DNA of 64,000 nucleotides from Chlorokybus atmophyticus (Eukaryota; Plantae; Mesostigma and Chlorokybus algae). Of the stretch, positions 1 through 26,929 are shown in pieces. The stretch's first letter is position 1, and the number at the start of each line of letters is the position of its first letter. The position numbers and the translations under genes were made by a program. Below the pieces are notes generated by a model. It did not search any database. It saw nothing but the letters and a program-made list of their open reading frames with translations, and was not told where the DNA came from. The stretch spans positions 185,064-249,063 of the forward strand of contig RHPI01000797.1 in the NCBI GenBank assembly GCA_009103225.1. Reading direction: 5' to 3'.

Positions 1-852
1 CCATTTGCACAAGGGCTGCAAGTTTGTCGCGTGCGGCCTTCACGCTCTCAACGGGAACAAATTGATGCCTGACCTCCAGTGCCAACTCTTCCATGGTGGT
101 CAATGGTAGCGCCAACCCGTTTGCAACACGCGTACATCGATGCCTCCACCACACAAGTGCTGCACCTTCAAGCAATGTCGCTGCAACCTCCACGTGCAGA
201 TGCATGGGCACCTCCGTGAGCTTCAACCAAGACGATACTTGAAAAATCCATTCATCCACTGCATCTCCATCACGTTGACCCCTAAATGGCTTGGGCTTTG
301 GCACCTTCACATGCACTCGCGAGCTTGATGCCATGGGAATTTGTACACGCGCCATCGCATGCTCATACGCCTCGCGTTGTGCTTGTGCCGCCGCTTGAGT
401 GTGATGAAGCTCTTCCCTCAGTGCCAAGATGGCAGCTTGAAGCTCTTCCATGCGAGCATCCTCCATCTCCACTAACACACTACACTCCGCTTCCGAATGA
501 AAAGTGTAAACGCCCACACACTTCCTCTCTCACCTTCGTAAACCGTGCTCCGATACCAGTTGTGACGGTGCTCGTGCCTTGTCACCTGTGAGTTGGTCCA
601 ATCCACAACCCTCTCACCAAGACACGGTATTCACACCGGAACCTTGCCCCCTCTGCCAAGCACACACGCGCGCCCCGCCACTCGCGTACGCACGCGCATG
701 CGCTCGAAGCTACACACCGACTTGTGTAGCGCCTTGGATCGTCACACAAGCAAGCACACACCGGTGGCCACACGCTAGCAACCCCTGCTAACCACCACCA
801 AGCTTGCACACAAGAAACTAGGGAGCTAAAGGTTGTATCGCAAATTGTAGAA
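1..852 (-). mobile_element. Ty3/gypsy LTR retrotransposon, 5' part (gag), running off the left edge of the window
   Basis: Minus strand translates KPFRGQRDGDAVDEWIFQVSSWLKL...LEGAALMWWRH...EELALEVRHQFVPVESVKAARDKLAALVQM, a Retrotrans_gag-like capsid segment. Confidence 0.8.
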
Positions 853-1232
853 TGTCACTTTTATACCTACCAGTCTGCACATGCTACTGTCTAGACGATT
901 CTAGCGCTAGACGGAACTAGAAGCTAAGATATTTTTGCAGAATCTTGTAGTACACTTCTAGACCTTTCCAACGCACCAAAGATCTCCTGATTTGCTGCTC
1001 ATATGGTCAAGTTATACTACTTGGCGCCAGGCCCTTCCAGAAATCTGGTCGAGCCCTTCTCGACTGGCCCTCCGTTTTCTGGCACCTTCCGGACTGGTCT
1101 TGGGGCCCCGGTCGATATCCGCGGCAGACTCATAACTCGCCGATATCCGCCACAAGTCATTAAAAACATGTACCTTACAAATAAGGCCTAAAACGGCCAT
1201 GAAAATCACAGAATTTGGCCTTGACTGTTACA
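853..1232 (-). repeat. Probable 5' LTR (~380 bp) of the left gypsy element, inserted into the CACTA transposase coding sequence
   Basis: Bounded by TGTCAC...GTTACA, the same termini as the chromovirus LTR at 34962-35488. CACTA coding sequence resumes right after 1232. The partner LTR lies outside the window and no clear PBS was seen. Confidence 0.6.
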
Positions 1233-4200
1233 GGCTATCTCACCTAAATGCTTTGTGAAAGACTGCAGTTTCGAGCCGAAAGTGCTTGAAACCCTCACGC
1301 CGGAGAGCAATTGCTCAACCAGTCCTACATCTGTGATTGTCCGTGGAGCCTGGGGTTTTACCTTGACTGCGACTTCCTTTCCATCCTTCATCTTCATCTC
1401 TGTCTGCAGCACATAGGTTCAAGTCCTTAGTTAAATCCAACTCTGGCACATGTCAACGAGGCCGACTACATACGTATCTCTAGCCAGAGTTCAGGCATGC
1501 GGACTTGCTGCTGCTGATCTTCTCGTGATTCGATGCTGTCGCGCAAGCCAGCTAGGAGATTTGCAAAGTTGGTTGCCAGGTTGGCAAAAATGTGCTATAG
1601 GGCCAACCACATGACCTTTGACAGATATTTGTAACGGTAGCCAATATGGAAGGTCGTGAAAACAGCTCAGTCCAAGGATGCCGGAGGTCTTTGAAGGATG
1701 TCTCTTTGAGTGCAGTGGACGCTTGCTGTTGCGAGATGTTATAGCATACCTGATCACATGGCATCCATTGCTGACATACCTATGTTCTGCAACCGAATGC
1801 GCAATCAACTGAGATTGCTCACCTGTACACGCTCTCTGCAGTCCGCATGGGTGGTGGAGGTCTGTGTTCTGGTTGCGGCCAACGCTCATCAACTCTGTAA
1901 GGATGGTCATCCGGTAGGTACCGGCGGTGGCCTTGATAGATCACCTTTTTGAGAAGTTCCACATGTTCTCCACTGCACTCGCACTTTGAACAGCCAAAGA
2001 TGGCTCCATGCGCCATCTGCAAGGCAGCTTTTGCCAGAGCTGCGCAACCAACATGATGTACTTCAGTAGCCACAACCATGGTTGCAAGGACAGTCTGATA
2101 TACCGATACAGTCAGACACTGATATTAGTAAGTGCAAACACTGCTGCTGCTTGCATAACTGGGTAATCATTGATTACAATCTCCAGAATAGATCTGCAAC
2201 GGAAAACTGCGTCGCGGTGGCTGTCATATATGTCTATACCTACAACAAATGCCAGCAGATTACATGCCTCAGTCATGCGCATTTGTCAAGCATGATTGCA
2301 GTAATGGGAAGCTGCTTATCCTAGCTGCGTTGAAACCATACCTTCCCAAAGATCTCCCAACTGGTCAATAATTGGCTTGAGATAAGCCTGTAGATTCTCT
2401 GGCTGTTTAGGTCCAGGGATTACAGCAGCTAGAAATGTAGTGTCTGTCTTGTGCATCTTGGCAATGGGCAGGTTCAACACCGAGATTGTGACAACCCAAA
2501 ACTCATAGTTCCCTGCAACTCAACAAACCCTTTGCTGCCATTCGTACAGTTACACTGCAACGAGCATACATGAAGAAAAATGCTCTTTTATACCTTTGTG
2601 CGGATCTTTGAACGGGCTCATCCCGTCGATGAACATCGCTAGGCGCACATTGCGTGGTTCTTTGGCAAACCGGCTGTAGCGTTGTTCAGTGTCCTTGAAC
2701 ATTGGCGAGTTTCACAGCAGCAAGTACACCAAGGGCTTACGACCAACTGCCCCAGCCCCACAACACATTCAAACATGCATACAATCGCAAGGCTGGATAC
2801 TGACGTCTTACATACCGCCCCAGCACCTCGCCGACACACAAACAAACATAGGCAAGGACACCGAGGTCTTACATGCCGCCTCAGCGCCACGCCGACACAC
2901 AAACAAACACAGGCAAGGACACCGAGGTCTTACATGCCGCCTCAGCGCCACGCACACAAAAGCACAAGGCACGGACACTCAGGGCTTGCATTGGGCTGCC
3001 CCAGCCGCTCACCAACACAATCATGCACACAGTCGTGCCTCATTTACCACTGAACTTGGCAATGTTACCGTGTATAGATCGCATAATCCCATCCTGACTT
3101 CGATTTGTGTGCGCCATCATCTCCGCAGCAACACTAGGTTTTAGGTACAGAGCCCTCAGCGCAGCAGGCACGTCAAAGTAACGCCCAATCTTCCATGCAA
3201 CTTGTCTACCTCCTATGTTGCGGTAGCGAGGGGCCTTGCAGACTGCATAAGCAAGTCGTATGCTGATGGGACATGCTAATCAAATCCCATTGTAGTGAAC
3301 ATTTGCAACAATTGCTCACCTTTGCAAAGTATCCTGTTGGCATGTCGGCCACAATACAACATGTGATCACAGCGACAGGCATCATATGTGTGGAAGCCCA
3401 TGTTGAGGCCTTCAAGGCGTTTCAATAGCTCGTGCATGCTGCCTGGCATCTTATTCTCCTTAGGCAAGAGGATGCCACGCAACAACCTGGCACACAGAAA
3501 CACATCAGTTCTGAGCAGGCTGATGTTTCAGCAGTCAGCAGTGTAATTTGCCCACCAACCTGAGCAGTTTATTCATGAAATTGAAGGGTATTCGATGTAG
3601 CTGCGCCAAAACCAATAGCAGCATGGAAATGCCTAGAGGGGTTGTACGAGAGCCGGAAACAACAGGGTTGCTTGCATTATCCAGCAACGCAGCATTCACC
3701 TTGTCAAGTAGCCTACTTGACATGGCATCATCAACGCATTTAGCCTCGTCCGGCTGCGATTCCACATCGGTGTCATACTCTTGGTCTTCGCCGGCAACAT
3801 CACCTTGCTCCGCATCACCTTGCTCCGCATCGACTTGCTCAGCAGTGGAGGTGCAGTGCACTGGCGTCTCAGGCTCTACTTGTCCATTGGTGGATTTGGT
3901 TTCGGCACCTTGATGCTCTTGCAATGTAGCATTCTCAATTCCACAAAATGCTGGGTGAGATCTGCGTTGTTCTCCATAAGCACATTGTCCTTCATGAGCA
4001 CACGGATTACAACCTGCCAGCTGCAATGAGTCTAGTGGCACATGAACAATGAGAGGCACAGCATCAGCAATGTCAACATGCCACGCAAGTCAGGTCGTAC
4101 CTGTTGGTTGCAAGTTCGCTGCAACATTGAAAGGAGATTCAACAATCGGTTGCAACGGCGTGCCTGTGTCAACATGTTCAGTAGCGTCGTTCCCAACTAG

Positions 4201-4564
4201 CAATTGTTCGGTGTCATGGAGAGCTTCACCTGGGGCAAGCCAGATCAATGATCAGACAGCCTGTTGTATAGATTCACAGCTGTAGAGAAGTTGCTCTTGT
4301 ACCTGACGACATGTGTAAGGATGCAGCAGCAACAGCAGCATCAGCTTCTTCAAGTTCATGGGGTTGTAGTCGATCACGGTATTCAGGAGCAACAGCTTCT
4401 GGAGTGCCACACCACATGTTTTTGCCAAAGTTTTCATGATATTCAGCCCTTCTAATGTGGTTGTGTGTGAACACTTTGCTCCCTTCGCAGTCGCGGCAAA
4501 AACACCTGCGAAAGTAGCTCATGCTACAAACATCAAAAGCAGTCAGCCAACATACTGCAAGCAA
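1233..4564 (-). pseudogene. CACTA/En-Spm transposase (Tnp2/Transposase_21-like), multi-exon, degraded and interrupted by gypsy
   Basis: Exons read YDACRCDHMLY (3276-3503), KIGRYFDVPAALRALY...DGIMRSIH (~3070-3200), FAKEPRNVRLAMFIDGMSPF (~2595-2675), VLNLP...VIPGPKQPENLQAYLKPIIDQLGDLWEG (~2340-2510), GCSKC...YQGHRRYLPDDHPYR...EHRPPP (1819-2079) and LLSGVRVSSTFGSK (1233-1412). A CxC-type N-terminus RRCFCRDC sits at ~4500. Confidence 0.9.
2800..2960. repeat. 61-bp tandem repeat (~2.5 copies) in a transposase intron
   Basis: cttacat(a/g)ccgcc...ccgacacacaaacaaaca(t/c)aggcaaggacaccgaggt recurs at 2807, 2868 and 2929. Confidence 0.9.
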
Positions 4565-4811
4565 CTTCTAATCAGCTTCCATACAGCCAAGCAAAGATTT
4601 GCAGGCACGCTACCGCCGCTGACACCGCCGCCGTCGCCACCGTCATGACTGCCTACCGTAAATTAAGGGTTTAGGACACATCCAATCCCGATTCAAAACA
4701 AGCCAGAAAGTCATTCCGGATATGCTCCACAATTTGCGTACATGCTCCTTTTCTTCTTCCGTCCAGTGCATTAGCTTCTAGGGTTTGTGTGCCAGATAGC
4801 GTGGCGCCAGC

Positions 4812-6682
4812 ATGCGCGGCGTCAAAGTTTGTAGCTTCCGCAAAGCATACTTGGTTAGGAATGGCAACAACAGACGTCTGCAACAGCATGAAGAGAAGTG
4901 CAAGCTGTACAGTGAGCAGTATGGCTTTTATGAAGCCTGCTGGCACCACAAGGCAAGGGGGGACAATGTGAGGCAATGCAGACTGCTGGCACAATGCATG
5001 AGGCCAGATTTCTTTTGGGAGGAGTGCACTTGCCTGCAGTGCTCGCTTTCCAAGTTTGAGTGGGACGGCAAGCCCATGAATCACCTGCCTTGGGCACGGC
5101 CTGTAGCATATCACGATGGGCAGATGTGCAATGTGGTTCGACGTCAGCTCGTGCGCAACGGTCGCGGCAAGTCCACTGTAATCGAAGACGATGTCAACAA
5201 CAGGGTGAGTTGAACTGTCCTTGCAAACAGCAAAACAGCGCTTGCATGCATGACCAACTTACTCTTGAATGCCAAAGGGGAACGCGGTTGTCGACGATGT
5301 CGCGACACTGGCTGCTTGGCGGTTGTTGAGTTGAACTGTCCTTGCAAACAGCAAAACAGCGCTTGCATGCATGACCAACTTACTCTTGAATGCCAAAGGG
5401 GAACGCGGTTGTCGACGATGTCGCGACACTGGCTGCTTGGCGGTTGTCGAGTTGAACTGTCCTTGCAAACAGCAAAACAGCGCTTGCATGCATGACCAAC
5501 TTACTCTTGAATGCCAAAGGGGAACGCGGTTGTCGACGATGTCGCGACACTGGCTGCTTGGCGGAAGGAGATTGTTGATGAGGGGCAGTCTTTGGTAGCA
5601 TGCCGCGTTGTGGTGTACTGGCCAGGAATGAGCTCCTGGTATGCAGGCCACATCATCACTTTTGATGCCAACACAGATATACTGCAGAGTATTTACATGC
5701 GCACGCTCATGCAAGCACCGGCTCAGGAAAACATGTGGCTCAGGAAAACATACCATCAAGTACGACGATTTCGTTGAGGACCCACGGCTGCACCACATCT
5801 TGATAAAGAACTGGAACATGGCAGCTGTGCGTGAGGGTTACGACGTAATGGTTCGTGTTGGTGGTCAAAGCTGTCTGAAACTGCAAGACTTGCCTGGTCG
5901 AGAGCTCGATAGATGGCCCAAGCCCCCACCCCTTCTGATCACACGCACACCAATAGACTTAAACGGAAGACGTTGCAGGCCGCGCGCACTGGATCTCTTT
6001 TGCGGCGCTGGTGGTGTAGCCATGGGTCTGTACAGGGCAGGGTTTGATGTTGAGGGCATCGACAACAAGCCACAACCGTCATACCCATTCAAGTTCTGCC
6101 AGATGGATGCAATGGACGCTGACCCGACAGCATACGCTGCGGTGTGGGCAAGTCCTCCATGTCAAGCTCTAAGTGGGGCCATTCCCACTACACAGCGCTC
6201 CGCGTACGGCAATCGATGGGAGCACGTTAACCTGATTGACCCCATAAGAGCCAAGTTGCAGTTGAGCGGCAAGCCATGGGTGATAGAGAATGTCGCAGGC
6301 GCATCAGGACACATGACAACTCACCTGAAGCTGTGTGGCACCATGTTCAAGTTGGATGTGTATCGTCATCGCATCTTCGAGACAAACCCTCCACTGCACT
6401 CAGACTTGAAATGCAACCACACTGGTTCAGCACTTGGAGAGCTGGCCACCCACCTGGAGCAGCGCCGGCAGTTGCTACCTGGGGAGAGGCAAATTTACCC
6501 GGTGGTACGGCCAAGCATCCTGCCGTGGCGCGATTGCAGGGTGGCAGTCTGCCATGCAGGTGGAGTGGATGGATGTGGAATCGGAAGTCAAGAATGCCAT
6601 TCCACCAACTTACTCTGAACATGTAGGCAGGCTGTTGCTGGAAGCAATAGGCTTCACTGTTGATTACCCTCCTTTTTACTGA
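4812..6682 (+). pseudogene. Cys-rich exon + Tudor-like domain + C5 cytosine DNA methyltransferase (phage/bacterial type); one frameshift at ~6503
   Basis: Motif I DLFCGAGG, IV SPPCQ, VI ENV and VIII RHRIF lie in ORF 5641-6618; motif X NAIPP lies in ORF 6434-6682. Tudor-like LVACRVVVYWPGMSSWYAGHIITFDANT/GKHTIKYDD spans 5585-5770. The upstream exon 4812-5204 ends at a gtgagt donor. Confidence 0.85.
5207..5563 (+). repeat. 121-bp tandem triplication spanning an intron and the start of the next MTase-gene exon
   Basis: Near-identical units start at 5207, 5328 and 5449 (gagttgaactgtccttgcaaacagc...gccaaag|gggaacgcgg...gcttggcgg). Confidence 0.95.
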
Positions 6683-6868
6683 AAGGTAGAGGTAGCTCTT
6701 GATTGCTAGCCACTTTGTTAGCCTGAACTAAAGCCAACAACAGAATGAGCGACCCATTAAAGTCAGCAAGAGGTCTTAATCATGAGGATGCCTCTGTTTG
6801 CCAGCACGGGAAAGACTGACCTGCTGGGCAGGGTCTCTTCCAGAGCACCTTCATGCCCTGTTGCGCCG

Positions 6869-7078
6869 TCCGCCCACCCGAGACTAGACCTCCTGCGGGT
6901 TCATTGCGAACGCAGGGTATGGTCCAACCAAAGCTGACTCGCGAAAGTCATGAACCAGAGGCTCTGAGCATGTGCACAAAGTCTACAGTACGTGACTTGC
7001 GCGAGACGGCTCTGCAGGACCACATCCTGCGTTCGCAGTAAACCCGCAGGAGGTTTTGTGTCAGGTGGGTGGGCGGAG
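6869..7078. repeat. Imperfect inverted repeat (~60-bp arms)
   Basis: ccgcccaccc...acctcctgcgggttcattgcgaacgcagg...tggtcc (6869-6926) matches the reverse complement of 7015-7078. Confidence 0.8.
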
Positions 7079-7877
7079 AAGGAGAACTTCTAGGTTGCTG
7101 TGCGCATGCCTTTGGTTGCGTGCAATCTTTGGACACATGCCCGGTTTCAGCACGTCACCAATTTGAGGGTGCGTGGATTCAACACGAATAACCACATTAC
7201 ATCCACACCACCCATGGATTCAATGCGGAGCGATATGCAATTCATAACAACGCAATATATATTTCATACAAAATCAATATAAATAAGTGTCAAGTAATGC
7301 TGAAACTTGCATTGCATATTGATTACATATCACATTCACATAGCATCAAATACCTACAGCATGTGTAGAATTGATATTGATCACTGTTGCTTGACACGTG
7401 CCTTGCAGTATCCGCATTGACTTGTTAAGCAATCAATGCCAATCAATGTGGTCAACTTCATTTGTTATAAGGCAACTTCTACAATTGATGACATTCGCAT
7501 TAACATCAATAATCGTAATGTTATATAAATTCTATTAGATTATGACTGGCGTTGTGCGCTGCGGGTGGTGGCCTGATCTGATCCGGAGGAGGCTACTGTA
7601 GCACTTAAACGGCATTGCCAACTAAGGCATCATGAATGTTGGTTTGAGCAATAATTTGTGCAGTGGTCACTGCCGACCTCAGGCTGTAATTACATTCAAT
7701 AATAGGCCCGTGAAGTTACATATTGGTACTCAACTAGTACATGGTTAGCATGGTAAATGACAGAGGAAGAATTGCTTGTATACAGAGGAAGCCGTCAAGC
7801 TTGTCATGTGTTTGCAAGCAATATGCTAGCAGCAAACCAAATAAAGGAATATCACTACCTTGCTCTAGCCATTGAAT

Positions 7878-10800
7878 TTAATGGCGGAAGTTGTTCACAA
7901 ACCACAATTCCTTGGAAGTGTCTGAGTAATCGCGCACCATGTGCACCTTCCTTAGAATGTTTTCCAACCCAACCACATCAAACCATGGTTGCCCAGCTCG
8001 CTCCGCCCATGTGTAGCGGCGCTGGCCGAGCAACGGTACTTGAGGGCCATATTCCTTGTACCATCTGATTAAAGCGCAAGCATGTTCCGTTTGCTGCACA
8101 TCCTTCATCAGGAACAAGAATCGCACTTGCCCAACCCATTCGACCACACGACTGTCAGTAACACCGCTGACAGCAACATCGTCAAAGTGGTCATAGCCAT
8201 AGAAGTCAGGGTTGGCTCGCAATAGCTTTGAATTGCTATTGCCTCTGCTTGCAGCTGCAGCTTGTGGAGAGAGAGTGATACTGCGCACAACATCAACCTG
8301 CATACATGCAATAATGTAATCAAATGCAAAACCCACGTGTAACGATTACTTGTGATGCATACGGTGAAGTAAAGGGGCAACCATACACCCTAACGTGTCT
8401 GTAGAACAGCTGCACAATCATGCATGTGACCAGATGTTCTGACCTTATCCCAATGTATTGCAGGCAAGTTAACCCAGAGCACGGCATCCCCGCGCTCTCC
8501 ACGACCTTCATAATCCAGTAGGTATCGCCGCGCAGCTAGGTGTAGATGTTTCAACTCTGGCTGCTCTTCCAAACACTTGATTGCATACACGGAAGTTGGT
8601 TGCTCCGTTCGCATGCCTGCCAGAAACAACGCCGTGCGCCGAGACGGCAAGCGGTGATCGCCGAGGTTTGTCACCTGTATAAAGTGTGGCAATCAAGCAA
8701 TGTAAACAATCAGTTGAGAGGTCACTTCTAACACTTGTATCACGGTGATGGAGCCATGCATTGACCTTGTGCAATAACTACGATTGTGTGGCAGCTGCAC
8801 ATACCTGACCGAGGTGTAAGTCCTTCCTACTCTTTCTTCTCCTTTTTGCAGGTATTGACGTGTTTATTGCTTTCGCGGCGCGCTTCCACGCATTGTGGAT
8901 GTGAGCTGTCTTTTGCTAAGAGCCCTTCGTACAGCGACGCGCCTCACCATCTGTTCAAGGCACAGTCAGGCAGGCAAGTAAGTGCATATATTGTAAGCGC
9001 CAAGTGTAGCTAGTCACCTGTGCAGCAACTGACTGAGCGTGCTTGTTGGTAGCACTGTATGGTTTATGAGAAACATTCTTATGGTCCTCTTCCCAAGTTT
9101 GTGCATCATATTCATCCAAGCCTCCCAATCGTCGAATGCATGCGTCGTAGTGCATTAGGCTATGGTATTTGACTGTCTTCCAGTCAGATGATTGGTAGTC
9201 CTTGAACGTTTTGTGCGCCATAGCATGGAATCTGCACAACAAGATTGGCGTACTAAGAGTGGCAAGAAGTGCTAAATGTGTGTGTAGATCACAATGCAGT
9301 GCTGCACTACCAAAGCAATGTGTTGCATGCGCTCACGTTCATATGCACGCGACGCAGCATTCGCACTCAGATTAAACACATTACATACATTGATGCAGAC
9401 AACATGATGTTTTGGCAGGCAAGCGGAGCGCGCACGCGCACGCATAGGAAGGCAACGCTCTTACACACACATGAACGCCGGCTAAGAAAAGGAGCATGCA
9501 CAGTACTTGCATGATACAGGCTTAAAGCTCGTCAACACCCACAAACAGCACCGCTTGGAACAGCAACATCACACACAGCGCGGCAAGGATGCGCGCATGG
9601 TGTTCAAGTTCACTTACTTGTTGATGGCGGCTTTCATGAGGCTCAAGGTTGTGTCTGTGTGAGGGCCAGCATGAGGGCCTTTTCGGTTCGAGATCATGTA
9701 GAGTTCGGAGAATGCCACAAAGATTGCCGTTAATGCATCGTGTTGACGCCCCCCTTGCGTTTCTGTGTACACCAAGTGTGTTGCGTATTGCATCACTTGC
9801 ATTACAGCCACGTGCTCTGCAGCAGTGACTGGCACTTCAGTTGTAAGATAGCCAGTAGGGATGCGGAGAGCGGCGCATCTCATATCATCCAAGCGCCCTT
9901 CAATGGTACGAATAAGATCTCCTGCAGCGAGCTCACCAACTGCATGTGGGCAAAGAATGGTGAGTAAGGCCATGTGCCCTACATGTGTGAAAGTGACGGA
10001 TGCAAGGTGAAGTGCGCACCTTTATCCTTCAGGTAGGCAATTGTAAGAGATGTTAATTGTTTAAACAGGCCAAGGACTGCCTGATGCATGCGTTCAACAG
10101 TTACCGCTTGATATGGACTGCCAGCAAGAGTGTCGCCAAATGGCATTCCCCACAATGAGCACTGCAAGTAAGTTAGTGTTGGGTGCAGCTTGGGACGCGA
10201 GGCACGGCCATTATTGGTTAGTCACCTTCACAATCTGACTATACGATACTGAGTACAGCTGGTTGAAAGCTTCTTCCATGGTGCCACCATCACGTAGAAC
10301 CTTCGTAGCAGAGTGATACGCTTCTTTCATCGCTGCAACCTTGCGCTTTGGCCATGGGTCATGAATGATGTTGTTTAGCTCATCACCAGGACACATGCAC
10401 CAGTGGCAAGGACTCATGGCTTTGTTGCTATCCTTGTGCAGTAGCAACTTGCAGCCTTCTGGCCAATCAGTGATCCAAGCCGCCAATACTGGAAATACAA
10501 GGTTGTCTTCATTCTTGGCGTTGACAATCACCTCACCACTGTCACATATTGCAGAATAAGTACACGTGCGCATGTGTACTGTCATAAGTGCTGGTTGATG
10601 ACAACAGAGAAAGCTTGCAGACCTTGCCATTAGCTTCAATGGTCTTAACAGAACTTCCACACATCTATGTAAAGCATCCATCTTAGCCCATTTGTATTGA
10701 GCTGAGCTTTTGGTAAAGCCTTTTTCTGGCAAAGCGCGTAGGGAAGGAAAGTACCCAACCAACCACTTTGCACCACGAGACCTAACATGTAAAGGCAAGA

Positions 10801-11830
10801 AGCATGATGTCTCAGTCGCAGCATGCATGCTACAACACGCACGTATCTGAACATACCTGTCGCGCTTCGGTATGTTAAACAAGCTCATAGATACAGGCCA
10901 GCACGAGGTGCCCTTTTCATTGACAGGGGTGCCATCACTGTAAAAGATTAACATGGCCATCACCGCACCACTCGGTACCATGTCCTATCAAATAGTGAGC
11001 ATCATTATAATGCAATTATGTATCAGCCTGACAGCGAGACTGCGTGTGCTACTTTAGGCAAGCTTACTTGCAGTTGGTTCCATAAGTTGGAGGTGTGAGG
11101 ATGGGAGTATATGCGTCCTTCAGCTCCTATTGCAATGTGCGGTGTTGTGATGAAGTCAGTCGGTGTACCGCTCATCAGACCAGATTTCGCGAAGAACTTC
11201 AGCGGTGTCGCGGTGAGTAAAAACAACCTCTTGTCGATATTCTGACCTAGTCAAGTTGGTTCGTAACCAGCCCTATGCACAACAACACAACCACTCAGAC
11301 AACGCTTGCACGAAGGCATGGTTGCACTAACAACATGGTTTCAACGGTGCTGCATCAAAGTGCACGTTGAGTGCATGGTTGCATCGCACCTCTTCAACAT
11401 GCGCAGCTGCAAACTCCTTGATCTGTTGCAGTGAGCGCACGAGTAGATGCTCCACCTTGAAGTTGGGATGGAACAAGATGGATAGTAATTGGATGCCGTC
11501 AGCATCGGATTGTCCCCGTCCTCCGCGCGACTCAATGTACCAGCTCACAAACTCTGAGGTTACGGCAAACGGTCCCAACTCGTCGTCAACTTGTGCTTGT
11601 ACTTGTTCAACGGATTGCCTTTCTCTCACACGAGTCAGCTCTGCTTGCAAGCGTGCAAAAGACCAGACCGGACGTGGTACTTGCAAGTCGATAAGATTGT
11701 GTGAGTCTTCTACCTCAATGTCATTGCTGGCATGCGGCAAATCATCAAGCAGGTCAGGTAGTAGATGACTTGTGCGGTGACGGGATGGCTGATGTGCAAG
11801 GTGTCCAGGTTGTGAAGTACTGCCTTTCAC
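7878..11830 (-). CDS. Plavaka-family transposase, multi-exon (integrity not fully resolved)
   Basis: Exons read EGRIYSHPHTSNLWNQLQ, LIFYSDGTPVNEKGTSCWPVSMSLFNIPK, LAAWITDWPEGCKL...PCHWCMCP, KTVKYHSLMHYDACIRRLGGLDEYDAQTWEEDHK, and a C-terminal WVGQVRFLF...ALIRWY...NNFRH*. Confidence 0.8.
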
Positions 11831-12153
11831 AGCTCATCGTTTGCTAAGGTAGACATTTTGGGTATCCACCGATTTGGATGCAGAGCATGCCTTGTTTTTG
11901 TGACGGTGTGAACTCCTGGCTAAGTTCGAGTCAAAGCTTCTCCCACATTCGCATGTGTAGATCTTAAATGGGAGCATTCTGCTGGCCACAATGTGGGGTG
12001 TTAACGTTTACCATCAACTACACTGTCTATGTGGCACATAGACGCAGGCAGGCAGGCGCGCACATGTGCACGCGCACACACATATATGCATGCAATCAAT
12101 GTTCTATAGAAAATGCAAGCGTGCATTCACTGAAGCATGCACAAATGTATGTG

Positions 12154-12190
<37 letters not shown>
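12154..12190. repeat. (CA)n microsatellite
   Basis: Direct read of the cacacaca run. Confidence 0.95.
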
Positions 12191-12192
<2 letters not shown>

Positions 12193-13034
12193 GGCCGTGC
12201 AGTGTGGCGGGGGGCACTTACGCCAAGAAGTAGATGCGGTGGAGTAACTCCACGTCTTCACGTCACCAACTTGGGAGTTGCACTCGCATTCCCACAGCAT
12301 ATGCGTTGTCAGGGGATGGCCTGTATTGTGTGTTCATGTGAGTACGCACCCGGGCAGCCTGCACGCACACGCACATTCGCATGCGTAAATGCACATCCGC
12401 GCAGGCATGCATGACTGTCATAGCGCACCACAAAGTGACAAAACACCCGCATACACTCGTGCATGCACGCACGCGCACGCACAGGCATTGCCTTGCAGTC
12501 AGATGTCAGTCCACACATCGGCATAAAATGAAATGCGTGCGCAAACAGGTGCACTAATGCAGGCTCCACCAGACACGGTTATGCATACACAGAGCCACAC
12601 GGAAGCGACCACATGACCAGCACACTAACTGCATGCTGAGCCACTTACTGCCTTCTATGTTTCCAGGAATAGCAGGCAGTAAGCCGCCCAGCATGCAGTG
12701 GGTGTGCTTGCCAGTCGAATGCATATCAGCATTGTGGACACAGGCAAAGTAGCACAGCAAGGCACTACAGTCGCTTACCGACTTGCACGACGGCAGAAGA
12801 CCGCCTCCAGCCGCTCAATCAAACACTACAGTGCCGCCAATAAACGCCAGCCAGTGCGTGCTAGGGTTGACAACGTACACAGAAACTTGTGTAGAATTCC
12901 TGTACAATTTGCAACTGCATTTTTAGGCAGCCGGCGGCGGTGGGGGCGGCGGCGGCGCTGGAGGAGGAGGTGGGCGTGTTGGGGGTTGTAGATTCAGGCA
13001 GTCATAGTAGAGGGAGAGCTTCTGGTCATTCGAC

Positions 13035-15160
13035 ATGGGCAAGCAGGAATTTCGCCAACCACTGCAAGTGTTGCCCAACATTGTGGCAGGCAAGCGAAAG
13101 ACCCGTCAGACTGCGCCGGGCTTGAAGCCACCAACCGATTCCAACAAGAACGATGAGTCGGCGCGGCAAGGGCGCAACAAGAAGCAACACATTGAGCTGG
13201 TGGCATGTGATGACGACAGCAGTGAAGCCAGCGACAGCGATCACAGTGACGAAGAAGAAGAAGAGGAAGACCACAACAACGCAGCTGGTAAACTTTCAGC
13301 TCTCTGTGTGTGTGTGTGTGTGTGTGCGCGTGCGCGCGCACGTGTCTGCAACTTCAGAAGCACACACACGCGCGCGTATGCGCGTGCACGCGCATACGCG
13401 CGTGTGTGTGCTTCACAAGTTGTGGCATAGTGTGCATTGCGCTGTCAATTATCACACGGTGTGTTTGTATGCTATATCTGCATGCGTGCTGCCTGCCTGT
13501 GCATGCGCACTCGTATGCGCTTCAACAAGTTGTTGCACTGTCACCTGTGCACTTGTGCTCTCTATTGGTATGTGTCTGCGCGTGCTGCGCCGGGGAGTAG
13601 GTGTGCATTGCAACCAGCTTGTGATTTCGTGGTTGTAATAGTGTGCAAAGCTCACCAACTCATTGCCTTCATCAACTGATGCAGATGTGATGCCCGTTGC
13701 CAAACACAAGCGGCAACACACAGAGCCAGTCCTAATGGTGCCCAAGCCAACCGCTATGGATATCATCAACGCGCGCAGGTCTAGTGCATCAATCGGCACG
13801 CGTCATTCTAATCAAGATACCCTGCCAGGAGAACGCTACAAATGTGCAGTTAATGACCTACCTCAAAAACGGTGGTAGCGACTCAAACATCATCAACGCC
13901 TTGCTTGGCATGCACACAGTAAGTGTACGTTTGCATTGTTGCTATGCATGCTGCAATCACGTGTTGCAGAAGTGTATGCAGAGCTGCTGTGCGTGCGCGT
14001 GCACGCATGGGCATGCGCACGCATGCGCACGCGAGCGCATGCAGGTGCATGCGCATGCACAGGCAGGCAGCGCGCATTCACACATACACACACGTGCGTG
14101 TCGACTGATCCAATGCTGCTGTTGTGCAGGAGAAAAAGTCAGCTGCTTCCGGAGGGTCCAGCTCTTTTCGTCAACACAGTGCCGCGAAGAAGGCAGGCCG
14201 CGGGCGAGGTAGCCCTGCAGGACGTGCTGCTACCCTTCTATGCCAACACGGCATGTTTTGTCCGAAGGACGACGAGTGGGTGCAAGCTTTGGCTGGCTGC
14301 ATCGCACAACGCGATGCCGACATCCCTCTCGATGCAGCTGTCAAGGCGGCAAAAGAACAAAGCATGGCAATGGTGAGTTCACATGTGCATGACACCTTGC
14401 CATGCGTGTGACACCGCTCATAGTGTGCTCAGCTGCCGCTGATACGGTAACTTGCTGCACGCATGCAGGACTTCATGAAGAAGATGCGCGAAAGACGTGG
14501 CGTGCGAAGCAAAGATGTTCGAAAGCACTTTGATAGTATCTATCAAGTGCCATCTCCCAAGCAGCCAGACTTACGCACCCAAAAGCTGGCTGACCTAAAG
14601 CAAGGTACCTTTGCATTGGTACTTTCCTATGTAGCTACCATAGATGATCACACCGCAGTGGCGCTCACTTGTGAAACATGTGTGCAGATGGTAGGTACCG
14701 TAAGGGGGAGGATGGTGCTGACTGCAGTAGCCCTTTGTTTGTGGCGTTGCTGGAGGCGATTTGGTCTACCTCTGCCACCAACAAAATCATGGCGCAGCGT
14801 AGAGACTTCACCATCACTAAGGAGAAGCTGACCTTCACCATTGCCGTGGTATGTGCTTTGCAAACGCATTGAATGCCAAGCATAGGTGTCCAGTTGCATT
14901 GTTATCTTGTAGAGCAAGCACGGCTTACTCGTGTTGTGTGCTTTGTGCAGATCATGCTGCACATGGAGGGCCGCAACCTTCAAAGTGTACCGAATCCGGA
15001 GATGTACTACAGCAAGATTCATGATCAAGTGAAGAAGTTGAGTGTTGAGCCATTGCGCGTGGTTGAAGAGCCCGCGTTGCCCGAAGTTGGTGAGGAGCTT
15101 GATGATACCTGTGAGGAGGGCGAAGCACCGTGCGAAACCGAGTTTGATTTGACTATCTAG
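13035..15160 (+). CDS. Multi-exon accessory gene of the Plavaka element, unknown function
   Basis: Spliced GT-AG exons: MGKQEFRQPLQVLPNIVAGKRK...acidic patch; LLCQHGMFCPKDDEWVQALAGC; DFMKKMRERR...; LFVALLEAIW...LTFTIAV; IMLHMEG...FDLTI*. Divergent from the transposase and inside the TIRs. Confidence 0.6.
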
Positions 15161-16661
15161 TCGAGTAGTACATATGATAGCTTTGATTGTGAGCGTTGGT
15201 GCCTTGACATTCAATACAGAATTGATGTGGTTCAACATGGCAATCGTAACATGTGTAGGGATTTAACATTGCTGATATCGACATGTGCTTGTTGTGTGAA
15301 GGCATTGACTTCATGCATTCAATGTCAATACTGTATAAACTTCATATGCGTCAACTTGTGTTGAATTTGCAATTGCATACAAATTCACTGCCCATGGATG
15401 TCCCATTGATCACTGTGGATGCATCCATGCAATGACAATTGATCTAGCATTGATCTATACAATGACGACATGGATTTTATATTAATGTGTTGTTGTCATA
15501 CAAATGTGTTGTGCTATTGATATGAAGTTGATAATCACAGTTGATTTGATATTGATTGGGTATGGAAAGGTACAGCAACCGTATTGATTTAACGGTCAGT
15601 CAAATTGGTGACGCGGTTGCCGGGGCCAGTACGAGGGCGTGCCAGTACGAGGGCGGCATGTCAACAGCAGCAAGAGGTGTTCTCTCGGGTGGGTGGGGGG
15701 AGAAGGACTGCCAGCCTGAGTTGCCATATCACAAACAGCAACCCAACCCCAGCGGCAGGTACAACCGCCGTCCATCCAAAAGCCCTGGAGCAGATCGCGA
15801 CCAACAAGTTCCATGCAGAGGCTGAAGGTGGTTGAGAAGGTGAAATGCAATCACATTTAGTATATGCACGAGAGCGATGCATACCTCATGACTTACTGCG
15901 GACTTCTGTTACCACCTCCACTCTACAAGTGCTGTCACACTTACCTGTGCGCCGTGACTGCATACAAACAGCAGCCAGCAAGGCTCCCAAGGCGGTGCGT
16001 TCGCAGTGAACCCGCGTGCAGTCGGGATGATCCTAAGCATACAAGGACAGGCAGATGTGGGTGATTGCATTTTGCTGCAATCCTTCAACACACACAGACA
16101 GGCAGCTAAAGCTAACACACTCTATCCTGTACAAAGACCACGAGATTGTCTTTCCTCTATCCTGTCATGTCAAGCTCCTGTCATGTCACCTGGAAGAACA
16201 CCTCCACTTCCTGCTGGTTAGCAGCGAAAGCAGGTGGCACAGGCAAGAAGGGGGCAAGAAAGTGAGCAAGAAGGGGGCTTAATCACAGGGTGATGCCCCT
16301 ACGCTCTGCATACAAAGACAGAATGAGCAAGCAGAGGGCTTATTCACGAGGATGCCTCTGCATTCAGCATGAGCTTAGACCCGAATCGGGAATGAGAAAA
16401 CAGAGGGCTAAATCTAGAAGATGCCTCTGTGTTCAGCTTGAATTAATATACACTTACACATGAGGTTGGCCCTACGCTGCGAGAACGATAGATTCTGCAC
16501 AGGCATGGTGAGGTAGCAGAGGCTCCTGCAAACACAACAGCAGCAGATGTTAACGAGAGCAATACTTGCAACTTTTGCTATTGTACAAGCAGTGTCCATG
16601 CGTGTTCCAACCTGCAAAGCTGGTAGTCGTGAAGTGAACAACCTCGAGGTTGCTGTTACAG

Positions 16662-19451
16662 CTACCTCTGCTGCTGCTGCTGCTGCTGCTGCTGTGTTTC
16701 CTTCTGCTCCCGCTGCTCCTTTCCCTGCTGAGCCATTCGCTTAATCTGTTGGCGCTCCTCCTCCTTCTGCCGCTTCAGCTGCTTACGCAGCTGCTCCTGC
16801 TGCTCAAGGGTCTCCTGTGCAGCTATCATCTCCTGCTCACGCTGATATGCAGCTTGATGTGCCAGCTTCTTGCCCTCCCGACGACTGCTGATTTGTTCCA
16901 GTCGTTCCAATTTCTGCAACCTGCTTGGCCTTGCTTTGCCTAACTCAAACTTTGAACGATCTAGGAGGTGTGCTTGCTGTTTAACAAGCAAGGTCCGTTC
17001 ATAAGTCTTGGCAGCCGACACAAGCAAATCGAACTGATCAGCATTCCAATCTTGGTTGCAAGGACCCTTGGGCACGCCAATGCGCACTACTTTCCTGAGT
17101 CCCTGGAGAAACAGTTGTAGTTTAAGGGCCTTAGGCACCAGCTCAACGCTTGTGTTTGCCACCCCGCACAACTGTGCAAACTGCGCGTGATATTCGTCCA
17201 CGGTGCGCTCCCCCTGTTGCACACGATGCAGCTTCTGGAAAGCACCGGAAGGCGTGTTGTCCCTTTGCAAAGCAGCTCGCTGTTGGCGGCATGACGGGCG
17301 GCGTCTGCGTTTTTTAGTGTCACTGGTGTTACTGGTTGCTGCGGTGCTGATGTCAATTGACATATCACTGATAGCATTAGCCTCCTCCTCAACAGCGGCA
17401 TCAACCTGCATAGCGCCAGCCTCCTGCAGGAGCTCCTGCCTTTGCTGGTCTTTAGCCTCATTGGCCTTAGCCTCCGCCTCCTGCCTCTGCTTGGCCTCGG
17501 CCTCCTCCTGCTTGGCCTTGGCATTGGCCTCATCCTGCTTGGCCTTGGCCTCCGCCTCCTGCCTCTGCTTGGCCTCGGCCTCCTCCTGCCGCTGCTTGGC
17601 ATTGTCCTCGTCCGGCTTGGCCTTGGCCTCCGCCTCCTGCCGCTGCTTGGCCTGCTGCTTGGCCTCCTGCTTGGCCTGCTTGGCCTCGGCATCAGCTTGC
17701 TGCTTGGGCTGGGGCTCGGCTTGCTGCTTGGGCTGGGGCTGGGGCTGCGGCTCGGGCTGGGGCTGGGCTTGCTGCTGGGGCTGGGGCTAGGGCTCGGCAT
17801 CTGCAGGGTACATGCCACGCAGGACTTCTTGTGGCATGTCGCTGCGCTGCCAAGAGAGTATACCATTTGCATCACCAACAGACATGTAATGCGCGCTGGG
17901 CTTGCTTGGATCCGTGTTGCCAATGATTATATGGCCAGCCACATCGATAACATCCTCGCCAACCACCACTACAGGTTTGACGGAATGCTTCTCTCCCTTG
18001 GCATCCACTGTGTAGTACCTCCCGTCATCGCCTTCGATGAGGCCGCCCTTGTGCTCTGCTTCCCAGCAGTACTGCTTCTCGTCGGCGACCTCAGTGAGCT
18101 GCACAGTACCGATGTGAATGCCAAGAGCGTGCGCCATGATCGCCACTTGCAGTTGATCGGCATAAACGCTCTCTTCAGCGATCACTTTCTGCAGAGCCTC
18201 TACATCGTTGTCTTCATCTTGCTTAGTCTTGAGTTGCTTTTTGTTAAGTGCCCTGGTTACGCCATATTTCCTGGCCATCTTTTTGTAATCCTGGCCCATG
18301 TCACCACAGGCCCCGTAGTTGCGATACTCCAGCAACCAATAAAGGTTGACCTGCTCAGCACAGATCTTCCGAAGCTTTTGCGCTTGCTCTCTTGTTGGCA
18401 GCTGTTTGCCATTGTCCAGCACAATGCTTCGCCAGAAAGACCCGTTGTCCGCTGCGTTCGCGCGTGTCAAGCACGCAGCGTTCACGCGAGGGCGCGACTG
18501 GGCAAGGCAGGCATAGAAGCAATTCCCATCTGCATAGGCATCGAAAAGCCGAAGCCGGTGTTTATCATGCAACAACCCAACCAGCTCTAACTCGCCCTCC
18601 GTTTCTGCTGGAGGTAGACCGTCCTCTGGTTCAACAGCAGAAGCAGAGGTACCGGCTTCAGGTCGAGGCCCTTTCTGCATTTGTGCAGTCTGGGACTTGG
18701 GTGGGGCCTCAGCTTTCTGCTGGGCCTCCGCGTCGGCTTGCTGCTTGGCCTCAGCATCCGCTTGCTGCTTGGACTCAGCATCCGCTTGCTGCTTGGCTTG
18801 GGCCTCCGCTTGCTGCTTGGCCTCCGCGTCGGCTTGCTGCTTGGGCGCCTCTGTTTCGTAGTCAAGACCGTATTCCCCGATGTCGATGCCCATAGCAGCT
18901 GCCTCTGGATCACATAGCCTTAGCTCTTCCTCCACATACTGCCGTAGCTTGAGCCTCCATTCTCGATTGAGGGAAGCCAAGACTGGTTTGCACATCGCTT
19001 TCTTGATAAAGACCACCAGCTCACCCCATGACATGAGGTTCTTGCTCTTCGCCTTCACTTTCCTCCAGTCAGAGAAATTCTTTCCCCACTTTGTCTTCGT
19101 TTCTTCATGGATGTCATTATCGGTAACAACATCTTCAAGGCCAAAATGCCCGAGGTCCATACCCCTAGCAGCTGCCTCCGGATCACAAAGCCTGAGCTAG
19201 TCCTCCACGAACTTCCGTAGGCAGATCTGCAAGTTCTTGTCGAGCTCAAGCAAGCGAGGATCTTCATTCAGATTCTTCTGCATTACTTCAACCACGACAT
19301 CCCAACTGTATTCTGTGGACATCTTCGCCTTCCCAGCCTTCTCCTCCTCCCTTAGTATCCGCCAATTATTGAACCCCTCCAGCAACTGAGCCTTTGTGGT
19401 GTCAAAAAGGTTTGCAATAGACAGTGTTATTGCAACAATGGTGGCAAACAA
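16662..19451 (-). pseudogene. OTU-like cysteine protease fused to an Ala/Gln/Glu/Lys-rich linker and a retrotransposon Gag capsid-like domain; two in-frame TAG stops
   Basis: ORFs 19197-19451, 17787-19160 and 16662-17411 are in one frame, separated only by TAGs at 19197 and 17787. OTU motifs DGNCFYACL and AHYMSV; Gag-like LHRVQQGERTVDEYHAQFAQL...LFLQGLR. Further upstream exons probable to ~20300. Confidence 0.75.
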
Positions 19452-19844
19452 CCGCAGTGAGCATGTGTTGGTATGGTCAGCTGGAACAGCGCTACATTAC
19501 TTGATTTCTTGCAGGGTTTCTGCAGGACAGCTTCCTTCTTAGCAGGTTCCTTCTTGTGCGCTGGACCCTTGTGCTTCTTGTATGTGTGCATGACCAGTGT
19601 TACCACATGTTAACGATAATCATGCTGAACAAGCATACATTACTTATTACCTGCAGACTTAAACTGGCCAAGGGGAACGAGCTTTCGCTTGGACATGATG
19701 AACGACCTGAGGAAAGCCTCACAGCCAAAAACAAGCACACATAGTTGAGCAACATGAGCATGCACACACACACACGGCTGCCTATTTGAGCATGCAGACA
19801 AGCCTGAGCATGCACACTTTAGCCTCAGCCACAATGAAAACTAT

Positions 19845-20020
19845 AAAACAGCTTGAAAACTGAGCAAGAGGTGGTCTTACGCACGAGGCCGCCCCTCTGG
19901 TTAGCATCAAGTGGTGGCTAACAAGAGTGCATGCTCAGATAAAACAGCTTAAAAACTGAGCAAGAGGTGGTCTTACGCACGAGGCCGCCCCTCTGGTTAG
20001 CATCAAGTGGTGGCTAACAA
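19845..20020. repeat. ~96-bp tandem duplication
   Basis: aaaacagctt(g/a)aaaactgagcaagaggtggtcttacgcacgaggccgcccctctggttagcatcaagtggtggctaacaa occurs at 19845 and 19941. Confidence 0.9.
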
Positions 20021-20384: not shown

Positions 20385-21184
20385 CCCTAACCCTAACCCT
20401 AATGTTTTTGTAAGTTGTTGTAGTTTGCAAGGTTGGTGGCGGGGAGGTTGTTGTGGTCGGCGGCGAGGTTGTCTTGGTCGGCCGCGGCAGCGACTTTAGT
20501 TATAAAGGTTGTGGGCGGCGTGGTCGGCGGCGAGGTGCTTGAGGTTGGCGGCGACGGCGGCAGCCATCCTTGGTTGATGCAGAGCTACTTAGGCAGATAC
20601 GTGCAAGCCTGCCTGCCTGCATGTTTTGTTTGTGCGCGTGCGTGTGTGTATGTGTGCTGGTCATTCACTGGGGCGGCATGTAAGCCCTCAGTGTCCTGCC
20701 TTGTGGTTTCCGTTATTTGCATGTGTTGGTGAGTCGCTGGGGCGGTCTGTAAGACCTCCGTGTCCTGCCTTGTGGTTTTGTTTTTCTGTGAATGTGTTGG
20801 TGAGGAGCTGGGGCGGTCTGTAAGACCTCAGACCGGCCCTGTGGTGTGGACTGGGTGAATGTTTTTGTGACTCTGTTTCGCCATATGTCATAACCCTAAC
20901 CCTAACCGCCCGGACATGTTGTTGTAGGTTGTGGCCGGGAGGCGGCGAGGTTGCCGTGGTTGGCGGCGAAGTCTTTGAGGTCGGTGGCGACGGCGCCAGC
21001 GATCTTGAGTTCCTCGCAAGAAACTCAGGCAGATACGTCGCATGCAGATTTTAGTCAAGGTCGGCGGCGGCGGCGCCGGCGCAGGCAAGGTCATCGTCGT
21101 CGTCGTCGGCGGCGGCGGCGATGCTGGAGCGCTAGCGGCTACACAGCAGATACGTGCATGCCGTGCTTCCTTGCGCATTCCATG

Positions 21185-21220
<36 letters not shown>

Positions 21221-21830
21221 CTGTGCGTGCTGTGTTTGCTGCAAGCCGCTGGGGCAGCCTTGTGCATAACCCCTCAGTGGCCTTACCTGTGCTGCGGCAC
21301 AAAAGGTGTTTGCTGCAAGCCGCTGGGGCAGCCTTGGGCATAACCCCTCAGTGGCCTTGCGGCAAAAGGGTGTTCTTTCTGTGTGTGCTTGCGCTAGCAT
21401 TGTGTCTTTCAAAAGTTATTTCCCTGCTCTATTTCTGACTCTACTGTTGGTTAACTACGGTGTGTGATCCACAGGTAAACAGCTACCATTCAGCGATGGC
21501 CGGTCGCTTTAGGTCCAGTGTAGTTGATCTCGTCGAACATGAGGTAGGTATTTGGTCTTGACTCAGATGCTTGCATGCATTCAACAGAGGGTATGATGAT
21601 TCAGCCGGCTGCTTCCAAGACAGCAGGTAAACCAGAGCTCGCATGCCAGGCATGGTGTGTTTGTGGATGAGACTCAGGTCAGAGTATTTGGCTCTGTGTT
21701 TTGGGTGTCTTGGCATTCTTACAGCTGCTATCAACAGGTTGAGCATTGCCTGCAGCATGTTTGCAGGACACCGCCAGTCACGGTGCCCAAGAAGTTGGCA
21801 AGAGCTCCAGCGACGACAGGGACAGATAAA
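20385..21830 (+). other. Putative small-exon gene with duplicated 5' modules and (CCCTAA)n tracts; product unknown
   Basis: ccctaaccctaaccctaa at ~20387 and taaccctaaccctaacc at ~20891 are each followed by a similar GGC-rich segment. A series of short AG...GT bounded segments lies at 21475-21830. Confidence 0.35.
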
Positions 21831-22506
21831 TGCATCCTTGCATGCGTATCACATGAATGTGCATGTGTGTGTATGGTGTCCAGTCAGCTGGGGCTGTTGA
21901 TTGTAAGCCCTCATGTGTGTGTATGCGCGCGTGTGTCGCAAAAGTCCGTGTTCACTTCTTCTGATGCGCAAACATACCTTGTATTTGTGCATATGTGAGT
22001 GCAGTTGTGAGGGGGTTTTCCAACAGCATGTTTGGGCAATTCTACTGCCAGTGTTAGGCGCTTGCATGCCTGATTTGTGTCCAACAGTTTTGAGCGCAAC
22101 CCGCTTTGCCTTGCAGGCTGTGCTACGGCCATGAGGTAATACAAAGTACAAGGTCAGATCTTTGCGTCATCCTTGCACAAGGCCTATAGTTTGGTGGTAG
22201 TTTGGTAGTTGTATAGTTGTTGTGTAGTTGTTGTTGTTGTGTAGTTGTATAGTTTGGTGGTAGTTTGGTAGTTGTTGTGTAGTATAGTTGTAATGTAACT
22301 AATCTGCTAGTCACTATGTTGTTGTGAACACAATTGTGGCGGTTGTGCCTGAGCTGATCTGCTGCTAGATCTCCAAGTTGCACAAAGGCACACACCCCAC
22401 TGTTATCAGTAATTGCACATGCAACAGCCACACTTGGAGAATTACCAGCAGAGCAGCTCAGCGGTAACCAGAGTGAACGGCAAACAAAGTGTGTGTAGAG
22501 CAATGG

Positions 22507-23891
22507 TCATTGCGACGAGTCACTAGAGTCATTAGGTTCACTATGAGGGTCGCGAGTGGGGAAAATTCCATTACAAGTTGGTGTGAGACTGGTACCGGGC
22601 GTTGCACCAGGTGCAGGGACTTCGGAGCCAGTAAACACACTCCAGCGTGCAGCAATATTGTTGTCGCACTCGATCACAACGCGCAGGCCAGCAGCGCCAT
22701 AGGTGCCCGAGTCAATGATAGTGCGAGCAGGAAGAGGCGCATCAGGAGGCGAGGGAGTGTTCTCATGCACGGAGACTGCCACATACACACCGGTTTGTAC
22801 AGTAGCTGCAATCGCAATGGGTGCCTGATGAACAATTCCACGAGTTGAAAGCTCCCAATTGCATAATTGGACCTGACAAACAAGTTTACAGGTTAACTCG
22901 CATGTTGCATCGCATTCATTCATAAACGTGCGCCAGAAGTTGATGCAAATGCATAGGCAGCGCCTCCATTGTTATGGACATGAACTGGACACGCATTCAG
23001 GCAGTAGCATGGCATGACATGCACGGCATGTAACGCAAAAGGGTGTTGCATGGTAGGAATCAGAGCTGTGCATATATATAGGCGTTCCTATCATAGCAGG
23101 ACAAACATATGCACACTACACAGGCAAACTCAACCCAAATCGCACACAAGGCATACGCATGTACAAACAATGCGCAACAGTATGGCACATGCATAGTGGC
23201 ATGCATAGTCAGCAGCATGCAGAGTGACATAGCGCACGCAACTCACACCATGAATAGCGAGAAAGATACCTGATGATAGCGAGCATCGCCAGAGTCCACA
23301 TAGCCGTTCCACGGTTGTGTCAAGACCTGACCTAGTCCCACTAATCGCCGCCCGACTGCGAGGAGCGCCTGCGTTAGAGCCTCATTCATGGTGCGCATGG
23401 GTACAGGGGGGTCCATTGTTGCAGCACACAGCACTTCACATATCCTATACAACTACCAGCATGCATTGGATGTTTGGGTTAGGGTTACTTATAGTTTGGG
23501 GTAAGCCACACAGACACCGTCCTCGGACATGGAAGATTTCATCGGAAATAGAGAATGTAATTTCGCTTGGTTTGTATGGACCAATAAACATAGAGTTCAT
23601 TTTGGCAATCAAAGTTTCGACAAAAGGCAATTTCCACGGCAATTGCTCGTGCGGCCTATTGCGGTCGGAGCAAGCGGAGACGCGACTGGTGTCCGACCAG
23701 CACAATTGCTGATGTGGATTTTCCGAACGATCACTGCATTCCATTGATTGCAGGGATTTCCGCACCGGGAATTGCACTGATTGTCCCACAGCACCGGCGT
23801 ACTTGCTGGTTGTGTTGGCGGCGGCGGCGCTGTGGCGAGGTGAGCGAGCGTTGTCAGCTGTCTTGTCGCACTGCCTTTCTAGTGGTTGCAT
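22507..23891 (-). CDS. Putative multi-exon gene with a TNP1/TnpA-like (Transposase_23-like) segment
   Basis: Protein-like ORFs 23445-23891, 23243-23452 and 22507-22923. The last reads STRGIVHQ...GVYVAVSVHENTPSPPDAPLPARTIIDSGTYGAAG, resembling the DAPLP-containing TNP1 domain. Confidence 0.45.
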
Positions 23892-26817: not shown

Positions 26818-26929
26818 ATTTGTTGTTCGAGTCAGCTGCCATTCAGCTGACATTGCTGTCCAAATTCACCGGCCGGACTGATTGCTATGTGCTATGTCAA
26901 AGCTATGCTATGTCACAGCTATTGACGAT

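Follow-up and report, generated by a model that had tools for sequence, protein, structure and literature searches.

Genes and features of the window

The window, that is the whole stretch of 64,000 nucleotides of Chlorokybus atmophyticus DNA that was analysed, has a GC content of about 50%, is eukaryotic and contains spliced genes together with many transposons. On its plus strand, at 4812-6682, lies a DNA methylase gene of three exons (4812-5204, 5520-5676 and 5744-6682), with a 495-residue model that holds one break. The gene sits within a CACTA/EnSpm element which runs from before 1233 to 27608, is at least 18 kb long and has an intron-containing transposase gene (Tnp2; 1233-4522, minus strand) that is broken in the window copy. 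In the 28590-39400 region, a Ty3/gypsy element with 300-bp LTRs at 29201-29500 and 34962-35261 (98% alike) is nested in a copia element, both family names being by-eye readings. A gene at 49-52 kb has as its closest match chaperonin 60B1 (E 2e-184, ranked above GroEL entries), the Chlamydomonas plastid subunit, so that a green-algal host is likely. Contigs of three runs, X1 from one study and X2 and X3 from a second, were compared with the window.

The CACTA/EnSpm element and the insertions within it

The transposase gene matches Transposase_21 (PF02992) in two minus-strand exons, 2319-2519 (E 1.5e-10) and 1822-2124 (E 7.4e-7), neither of which falls short of the cut-off, and contains an extra base at 1596 which is missing from X1, X2 and X3. 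Read by eye, its likely start is at 4522, or at 4646 given an upstream exon, which leaves 170-290 bp to the methylase ATG. The two genes are thus head-to-head with no element terminus between them, as had been noticed in the preliminary description. An X2 contig matching 2924-4907 links the transposase gene with the start of the methylase gene, and a second variant, about 89% alike, covers both genes at a depth of 10-15 as compared to 21-33, depth not being equivalent to copy number.

Contig cover at similar depth continues to 27608 in both runs, and a 502-nt X1 contig stops exactly at this position. The right terminus with its subterminal repeats occupies 26880-27608, where GAATAATCA is present in four copies as compared to none in the rest of the window and ATTATTCA in seven copies as compared to one. 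Read from outside, the right end at 27608 is CACCGG, but CACTAGTG is also found about 80 bp further right; the left end lies outside the window. Repeat motifs internal to the window tie the left and right parts of the element together. The 22-bp core of the 61-bp tandem repeats in the transposase intron (2773-3031, minus strand) occurs three times there and three times at 20.7-20.8 kb (20668-20829), scoring 28-33 bits against 11.8 for the next best site of the window, and the 20-bp motif of an imperfect palindrome (6847-7095; copies at 6895 and 7028) is found again at 15996, on the other side of an inserted Plavaka transposon. With the bridging contigs, the cover to 27608 and the terminus with its subterminal repeats, the earlier proposal that the methylase is carried by a CACTA transposon is supported.

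Between the methylase gene and the terminus, two further gene regions were delineated. The second cargo gene (16662-19496, minus strand), covered by the contigs of the element, consists of a tandem N-terminal domain, an OTU-like cysteine protease motif (OTU PF02338, E 0.039), Q/A/E repeats and a gag-like piece (PF03732, E 1.2e-4); a stop at 19197-19199 splits the repeated N-terminal domain, and the GDG-C-F motif gave weak PDB matches (E ~0.9). A spliced ORF2 region (20400-26560, plus strand), under continuous contig cover, is TnpA-like by its position only and had no Pfam match in the pieces scanned between 20.4 and 26.6 kb.

The element was itself invaded later, the Plavaka and LTR insertions both postdating it. 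At 1-1232 (minus strand) lies the end of an LTR retrotransposon inserted in the transposase gene, with a gag-like piece, identified by eye, and an LTR ending CA at 1232; a depth step and loose ends are seen at 1232/1233, and contigs carry the transposase beyond 1233 with other sequence. At 7153-15613 (minus strand), a complete-looking Plavaka element of 8.5 kb is bounded by terminal inverted repeats of 14 bp that match perfectly, flanked by what is likely a 2-bp target duplication, and contains a Plavaka transposase (PF18759, E 1.9e-12) and a second spliced gene on the plus strand at about 13.0-15.2 kb. A 2254-nt X2 contig joins 6616-7151 to 15613-17312 and represents the empty site, while an X1 loose end at 7151 continues, with letters unique in the window, at 15615. 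Since the skipped stretch 7153-15613 has perfect inverted ends, Plavaka is a nested insertion. As the carrier of the methylase it was rejected, for its inverted repeats lie at 7153 and 15613, the methylase gene ends at 6682 and the empty site is present in the contig.

A bacterial contaminant or a chimeric join, which the preliminary description had named as a possible artefact, was also rejected. The gene has introns, the composition is host-like, and the chaperonin 60B1 gene lies in the same window. Moreover, contigs from two studies bridge the transposase and the methylase, join 7151 to 15613 and do so without the frameshift of the window copy, which excludes both contamination and a chimeric join.

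Structure of the methylase gene and state of the window copy

Exon 1 (4812-5204) encodes 131 Cys/His-rich residues in an open frame from the ATG to a GTGAGT donor; no match was found in Pfam, PHROG or PDB, and its single-sequence fold (pLDDT 38.5) was unusable. An assignment as a C-type lectin (Atlas clusters, 0.90) was not accepted, only 110 of 256 features being shared. Intron 1 (5205-5519) is 315 nt long, up from 73 nt through a 121-bp triplication (5206-5568). Exon 2 (5520-5676) provides the first half of the Tudor domain, and intron 2 (5677-5743) has, in the window copy, AT..AG ends and an acceptor segment that is duplicated. Its donor is therefore non-GT, a canonical GT being available in the same phase at 5689, the use of which would make the Tudor four residues longer. 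Exon 3 (5744-6682) encodes the end of the Tudor, a linker and the short C5-methyltransferase, and contains one extra base near 6504 that shifts the frame upstream of motif X.

The lower-depth variant (X1, X2) aligns to 5221 and picks up again at 5535, and in each of the two variants contigs start at the intron 2 acceptor, at 5741. This matches the pattern expected of kept exons and drifting introns. The extra base near 6504 is missing from the X1, X2 and X3 contigs, hence from both studies. Consequently, the frameshift is private to the window copy or to its assembly, and an in-frame allele of the methylase exists in two studies. The window copy itself, with its frameshift, AT donor, duplicated acceptor and broken transposase, is probably dead.

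These lesions are in line with a rather unlikely, though not negligible, alternative in which an algal orphan methylase gene was caught by chance and rides along as passive cargo without benefit to the element. The element also holds other odd pieces, such as the gag-like segment, and two of the four listed exon differences between X1 and X2 change the protein, a number too small for a test. On the other hand, the variant diverged by about 11% has kept the gene, in frame over 5741-6252 in spite of 18 extra bases in this interval, it agrees with the main variant in the exons while differing in intron 1, and the main X1/X2 allele is free of the frameshift.

The catalytic domain belongs to a short phage-type family

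The core motifs DLFCGAGG, SPPCQ, ENV, RHRIF and NAIPP, all of which had been recognised in the preliminary description, are located in the 495-residue model at residues 267, 320, 365, 391 and 467, NAIPP being placed in the other frame by the single extra base. They represent C5 motifs I, IV (PC), VI (ENV), VIII (R-x-R) and X. Enzymes of the C5 class flip the cytosine out and use the PC cysteine and the ENV glutamate. In the profile (HMM) searches suggested beforehand, Pfam DNA_methylase matched the window protein at E 2.4e-4, slightly below the cut-off, and the Tudor was seen by way of a PDB entry.

PHROG 363 was matched at E 2e-23. Homologues account for 3245 of the 3377 scored candidates, with 46-57% identity for the best 120, and the family counts 3834 representatives at E 0.001, typical enzymes being of 200-260 residues. 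Matches were obtained in 310 GenBank phage records, mostly of actinophages, the identity being 43-49% along the greater part of the catalytic portion. The target-recognition region of the window protein is of 71 residues as compared to a median of 62 in the short phage family, in agreement with the near-minimal region first described. Tailed-phage enzymes of this family (PHROG 363; those of mycobacteriophage and Streptomyces phage) share this short region, and the window gene differs from them by its introns, its N-terminal Tudor, its Cys-rich exon and the clade signatures described below. Kinship with MET1, DNMT1, CMT or DRM was not observed: DNMT1-type PDB chains align at motif I only (E 0.0026 or worse), which upholds the phage-type reading, and no BAH or chromo match was obtained with Pfam in the window protein; rows of these four families were not included in the trees. 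When the fold was examined on the relative P0414 rather than on the window protein itself (pLDDT 92.6), Foldseek retrieved DNMT3A, MET1 and M.HaeIII at E ~1e-8 to 1e-7.

Two minor observations concern the phage-type proteins. P0152, P0153, P0161 and P0194 contain tandem, partly permuted copies of the short methylase. No TET/JBP partner was present among the 85 of 133 neighbouring ORFs scanned at 24 phage loci.

A Tudor domain is joined to the methylase by splicing

The only PDB match of the Tudor exon up to E 10 is 7DE9, the Tudor of Arabidopsis RDM15, at E 0.0045. This structure is described as the RDM15 Tudor bound to H3K4me1, with a cage formed by W616, Y623 and Y641 plus D643 and D645 (PMC8184781). 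In the spliced model, W165 and Y172 of exon 2 and Y190 and D192 of exon 3 stand at the exact RDM15 spacing, in accordance with the upstream, plant-like spliced Tudor of the preliminary description. D192 is the counterpart of D643 and the position of D645 is occupied by Val, so that the D643 and D645 pair associated with monomethyl specificity in RDM15 is incomplete in the window Tudor. Atlas matches, all below 0.9, were mostly of Tudor type and serve as a lead only. Because the cage spacing is exact, the junction at the AT site is favoured over the GT at 5689 and its four additional residues.

A highly improbable alternative is that the Tudor and the methylase are separate, translation of the enzyme beginning at a linker Met, with the exons upstream of it forming a separate or dead fragment. 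The non-canonical donor at 5677 and the Met codons that lie in frame near 5818 and 5848 would fit such an arrangement, as would the absence of any relative combining a Tudor with this methylase among the 31 longer matches and the top matches scanned with Pfam. Against it, the second half of the Tudor, with Y190 and D192, opens the same exon 3 frame as the methylase, and any transcript that completes the Tudor therefore reads on into the enzyme. The sequence evidence thus supports a real Tudor domain, joined to the methylase by splicing.

Relatives with an inserted MBD and origin of the enzyme

The best overall match of the window protein is P0121 (55% identity, 95% cover, E 7e-53), in which an MBD is inserted in the target-recognition region, and a profile search added further insert-bearing relatives. 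Closest to the window protein are 15 methylases that carry an insert, in most cases an MBD (P0121, P0154, P0156, P0158, P0159, P0187, P0313-P0318, P0321, P0409 and P0414). These are compact C5-methylases of 280-390 residues, most of them scoring below the Pfam DNA_methylase cut-off. Two are named, Chromochloris UNPLg00428 and Klebsormidium nitens GAQ92615 (in the cluster of P0314), and a eukaryotic origin of the others is presumed. Among the matches listed, none of the clade members was found in a viral contig. The Klebsormidium-type gene, of which there are several near-identical copies, adjoins a HIT-like ORF of 145 residues.

In a 63-row tree made of the window protein, the 15 insert-bearing relatives and 47 selected short homologues, the first 16 fall on one side of a branch with support 87/92, the branch being unstarred and its bootstrap unsettled. 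A 208-row FastTree splits this group: one clade member is placed elsewhere, while ten short enzymes are taken into a starred set of 25. The nearest non-MBD loci checked in the 208-row FastTree (L195-L197) are tailed-phage contigs. Two motif signatures are shared by the window protein and 12 of 13 clade members and are found in 0 of 234 other homologues. The target-recognition segment, of 71 residues in the window protein, measures 98-167 in 13 of 14 clade members, one not being measurable. No MBD match was obtained with Pfam in the window protein, which retains the flanks of the insert without the MBD. Loss of the MBD in the window lineage would be a simpler reading of these sequences than early branching.

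Since the closest relatives form a eukaryote-linked MBD-insert clade and are not phage enzymes, the horizontal step would be older and upstream of the transposon. The horizontal acquisition put forward in the preliminary description consequently holds as to a phage-type ancestry but not as to a transfer straight from a phage. In the history that we propose, a short phage methylase would have entered green algae, acquired an MBD in its target-recognition region and spread as an intron-poor gene, after which the window lineage may have lost the MBD, gained introns and the Tudor exon and become transposon cargo. Among viral structures, the methylase of Pithovirus LCPAC201 (BFVD A0A481Z4Z4, E 3e-18, 31% identity) matches P0414 better than any other by a wide margin. 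A giant-virus route for the enzyme is possible, this match speaking for it and the tailed-phage loci L195-L197 against.

Proposed function and comparison with known systems

The reading that we favour, with modest confidence and on the basis of domain content and gene arrangement, is that of a Tudor-guided writer which would mark the element's own active copies, either to limit or to disguise them. Intact copies would be expected to write 5-methylcytosine on chromatin recognised by the Tudor, most likely that of the transcribed copies of the element, the Tudor tethering the enzyme by binding methyl-lysine on histone H3. With its phage-sized target-recognition region the enzyme may have little sequence choice, in which case the Tudor would supply the targeting, and a shared bidirectional promoter would ensure that enzyme and transposase are always produced together, with the marks so laid dampening or disguising active copies. 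Both self-marking and anti-silencing had been suggested at first; a methyl writer would suit self-marking or self-limitation better than anti-silencing. No dinucleotide footprint of self-methylation is visible over the methylase gene, CpG depletion there (0.70) showing no difference from host-like regions (0.74-0.78).

A wider and more tentative version, which we consider possible but doubtful, would see here a toolkit built by a transposon, with a phage-born methylase whose MBD was swapped for a Tudor, coupled to the transposase, accompanied by an OTU deubiquitinase and laying a private 5mC on active copies, as the mobile outpost of a family of read-write MBD methylases in green algae that has gone unrecognised.

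A similar design among known systems is that of N4CMT of bdelloid rotifers (PMC8885841), likewise described as a prokaryote-derived methylase joined to a histone reader in a histone-read-DNA-write arrangement. N4CMT, however, is a 4mC enzyme with a chromodomain encoded by a host gene, whereas the window gene combines a C5 enzyme with a Tudor in a transposon. An improbable alternative can be modelled on it, in which the window gene would be a host weapon or domesticated silencer, later enclosed by CACTA or present in a single immobile copy. N4CMT, as reported, unites a bacterial methylase and a chromatin reader that marks transposons, the best Tudor match, RDM15, is a protein of a silencing pathway, and a small number of copies would agree with contigs that are long and unbranched. 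The gene nevertheless stands between the transposase and the right terminus in two sequence variants, and some 37 kb separate it from the closest host-like genes, both of which speak against a host silencer.

C5-methyltransferases as algal transposon cargo are also reported in DNMT retrotransposons (SymbioLINE-Dnmt, SymbioDIRS-Dnmt3 and KnitGypsy-Dnmt3; PMC5890265) and in EpiLTRs (bioRxiv 10.64898/2026.05.21.726589), the latter pairing the methylase with a chromatin reader as well, a chromodomain. The retrotransposon enzymes are reported to methylate CG de novo, and DNMT cargo in DNA transposons of marine viruses is cited in the same paper (PMC5890265). As described, the DNMT retroelements carry intronless DNMT3, DNMT4-sister or Symbiodinium-specific enzymes; the window element, on the other hand, is of the cut-and-paste type, its methylase gene is spliced, and the encoded enzyme, short and of phage type, is itself fused to a Tudor. 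Fungal TET/JBP DNA transposons, including EnSpm and Plavaka (PMC12730594), resemble it by their CMCT clade, CAC-type terminus and DNA-modifying cargo, but their cargo is an eraser proposed to serve escape from silencing, whereas the window element carries a writer. Eukaryotic orphan DNMTs and ChloroDNMTs (PMC12344493) are likewise laterally acquired, lineage-limited algal DNMTs, the orphans mostly described without companion domains and ChloroDNMTs often with PWWP. Section 5 of that paper does not name a short family with an inserted MBD or a fused Tudor, and its supplements may list such enzymes as orphans.

In the literature searched, mostly non-subscription and in main texts, no report was found of a CACTA-borne C5-methylase or of an MBD-inserted phage-type methylase. 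The cargo of this kind published so far for DNA transposons consists mostly of erasers or anti-silencers, writers coming from retrotransposons and virus-borne elements. If the proposed reading is true, a histone-guided writer on a CACTA element would represent transposons that add methylation and do not merely evade it, with a traceable route from a phage enzyme to a eukaryotic chromatin regulator. The MBD-inserted enzymes, of 300-350 residues, would be compact read-write methylases, easy to express and assay, and because they often score below the Pfam cut-off DNMT surveys may overlook them.

Two further observations concern the regions near the gene starts of the element. Tandem arrays are found there at 2773-3031 (61 bp), 5206-5568 (121 bp), 19843-20020 (96 bp), 20642-20870 (69 bp) and 26938-27159 (116 bp), which may recall the noncoding VANC target regions described for VANDAL elements. 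Telomere-like CCCTAA / AAACCCTA stretches are also present, at 20385-20402, 20894-20905 and 4779-4786.
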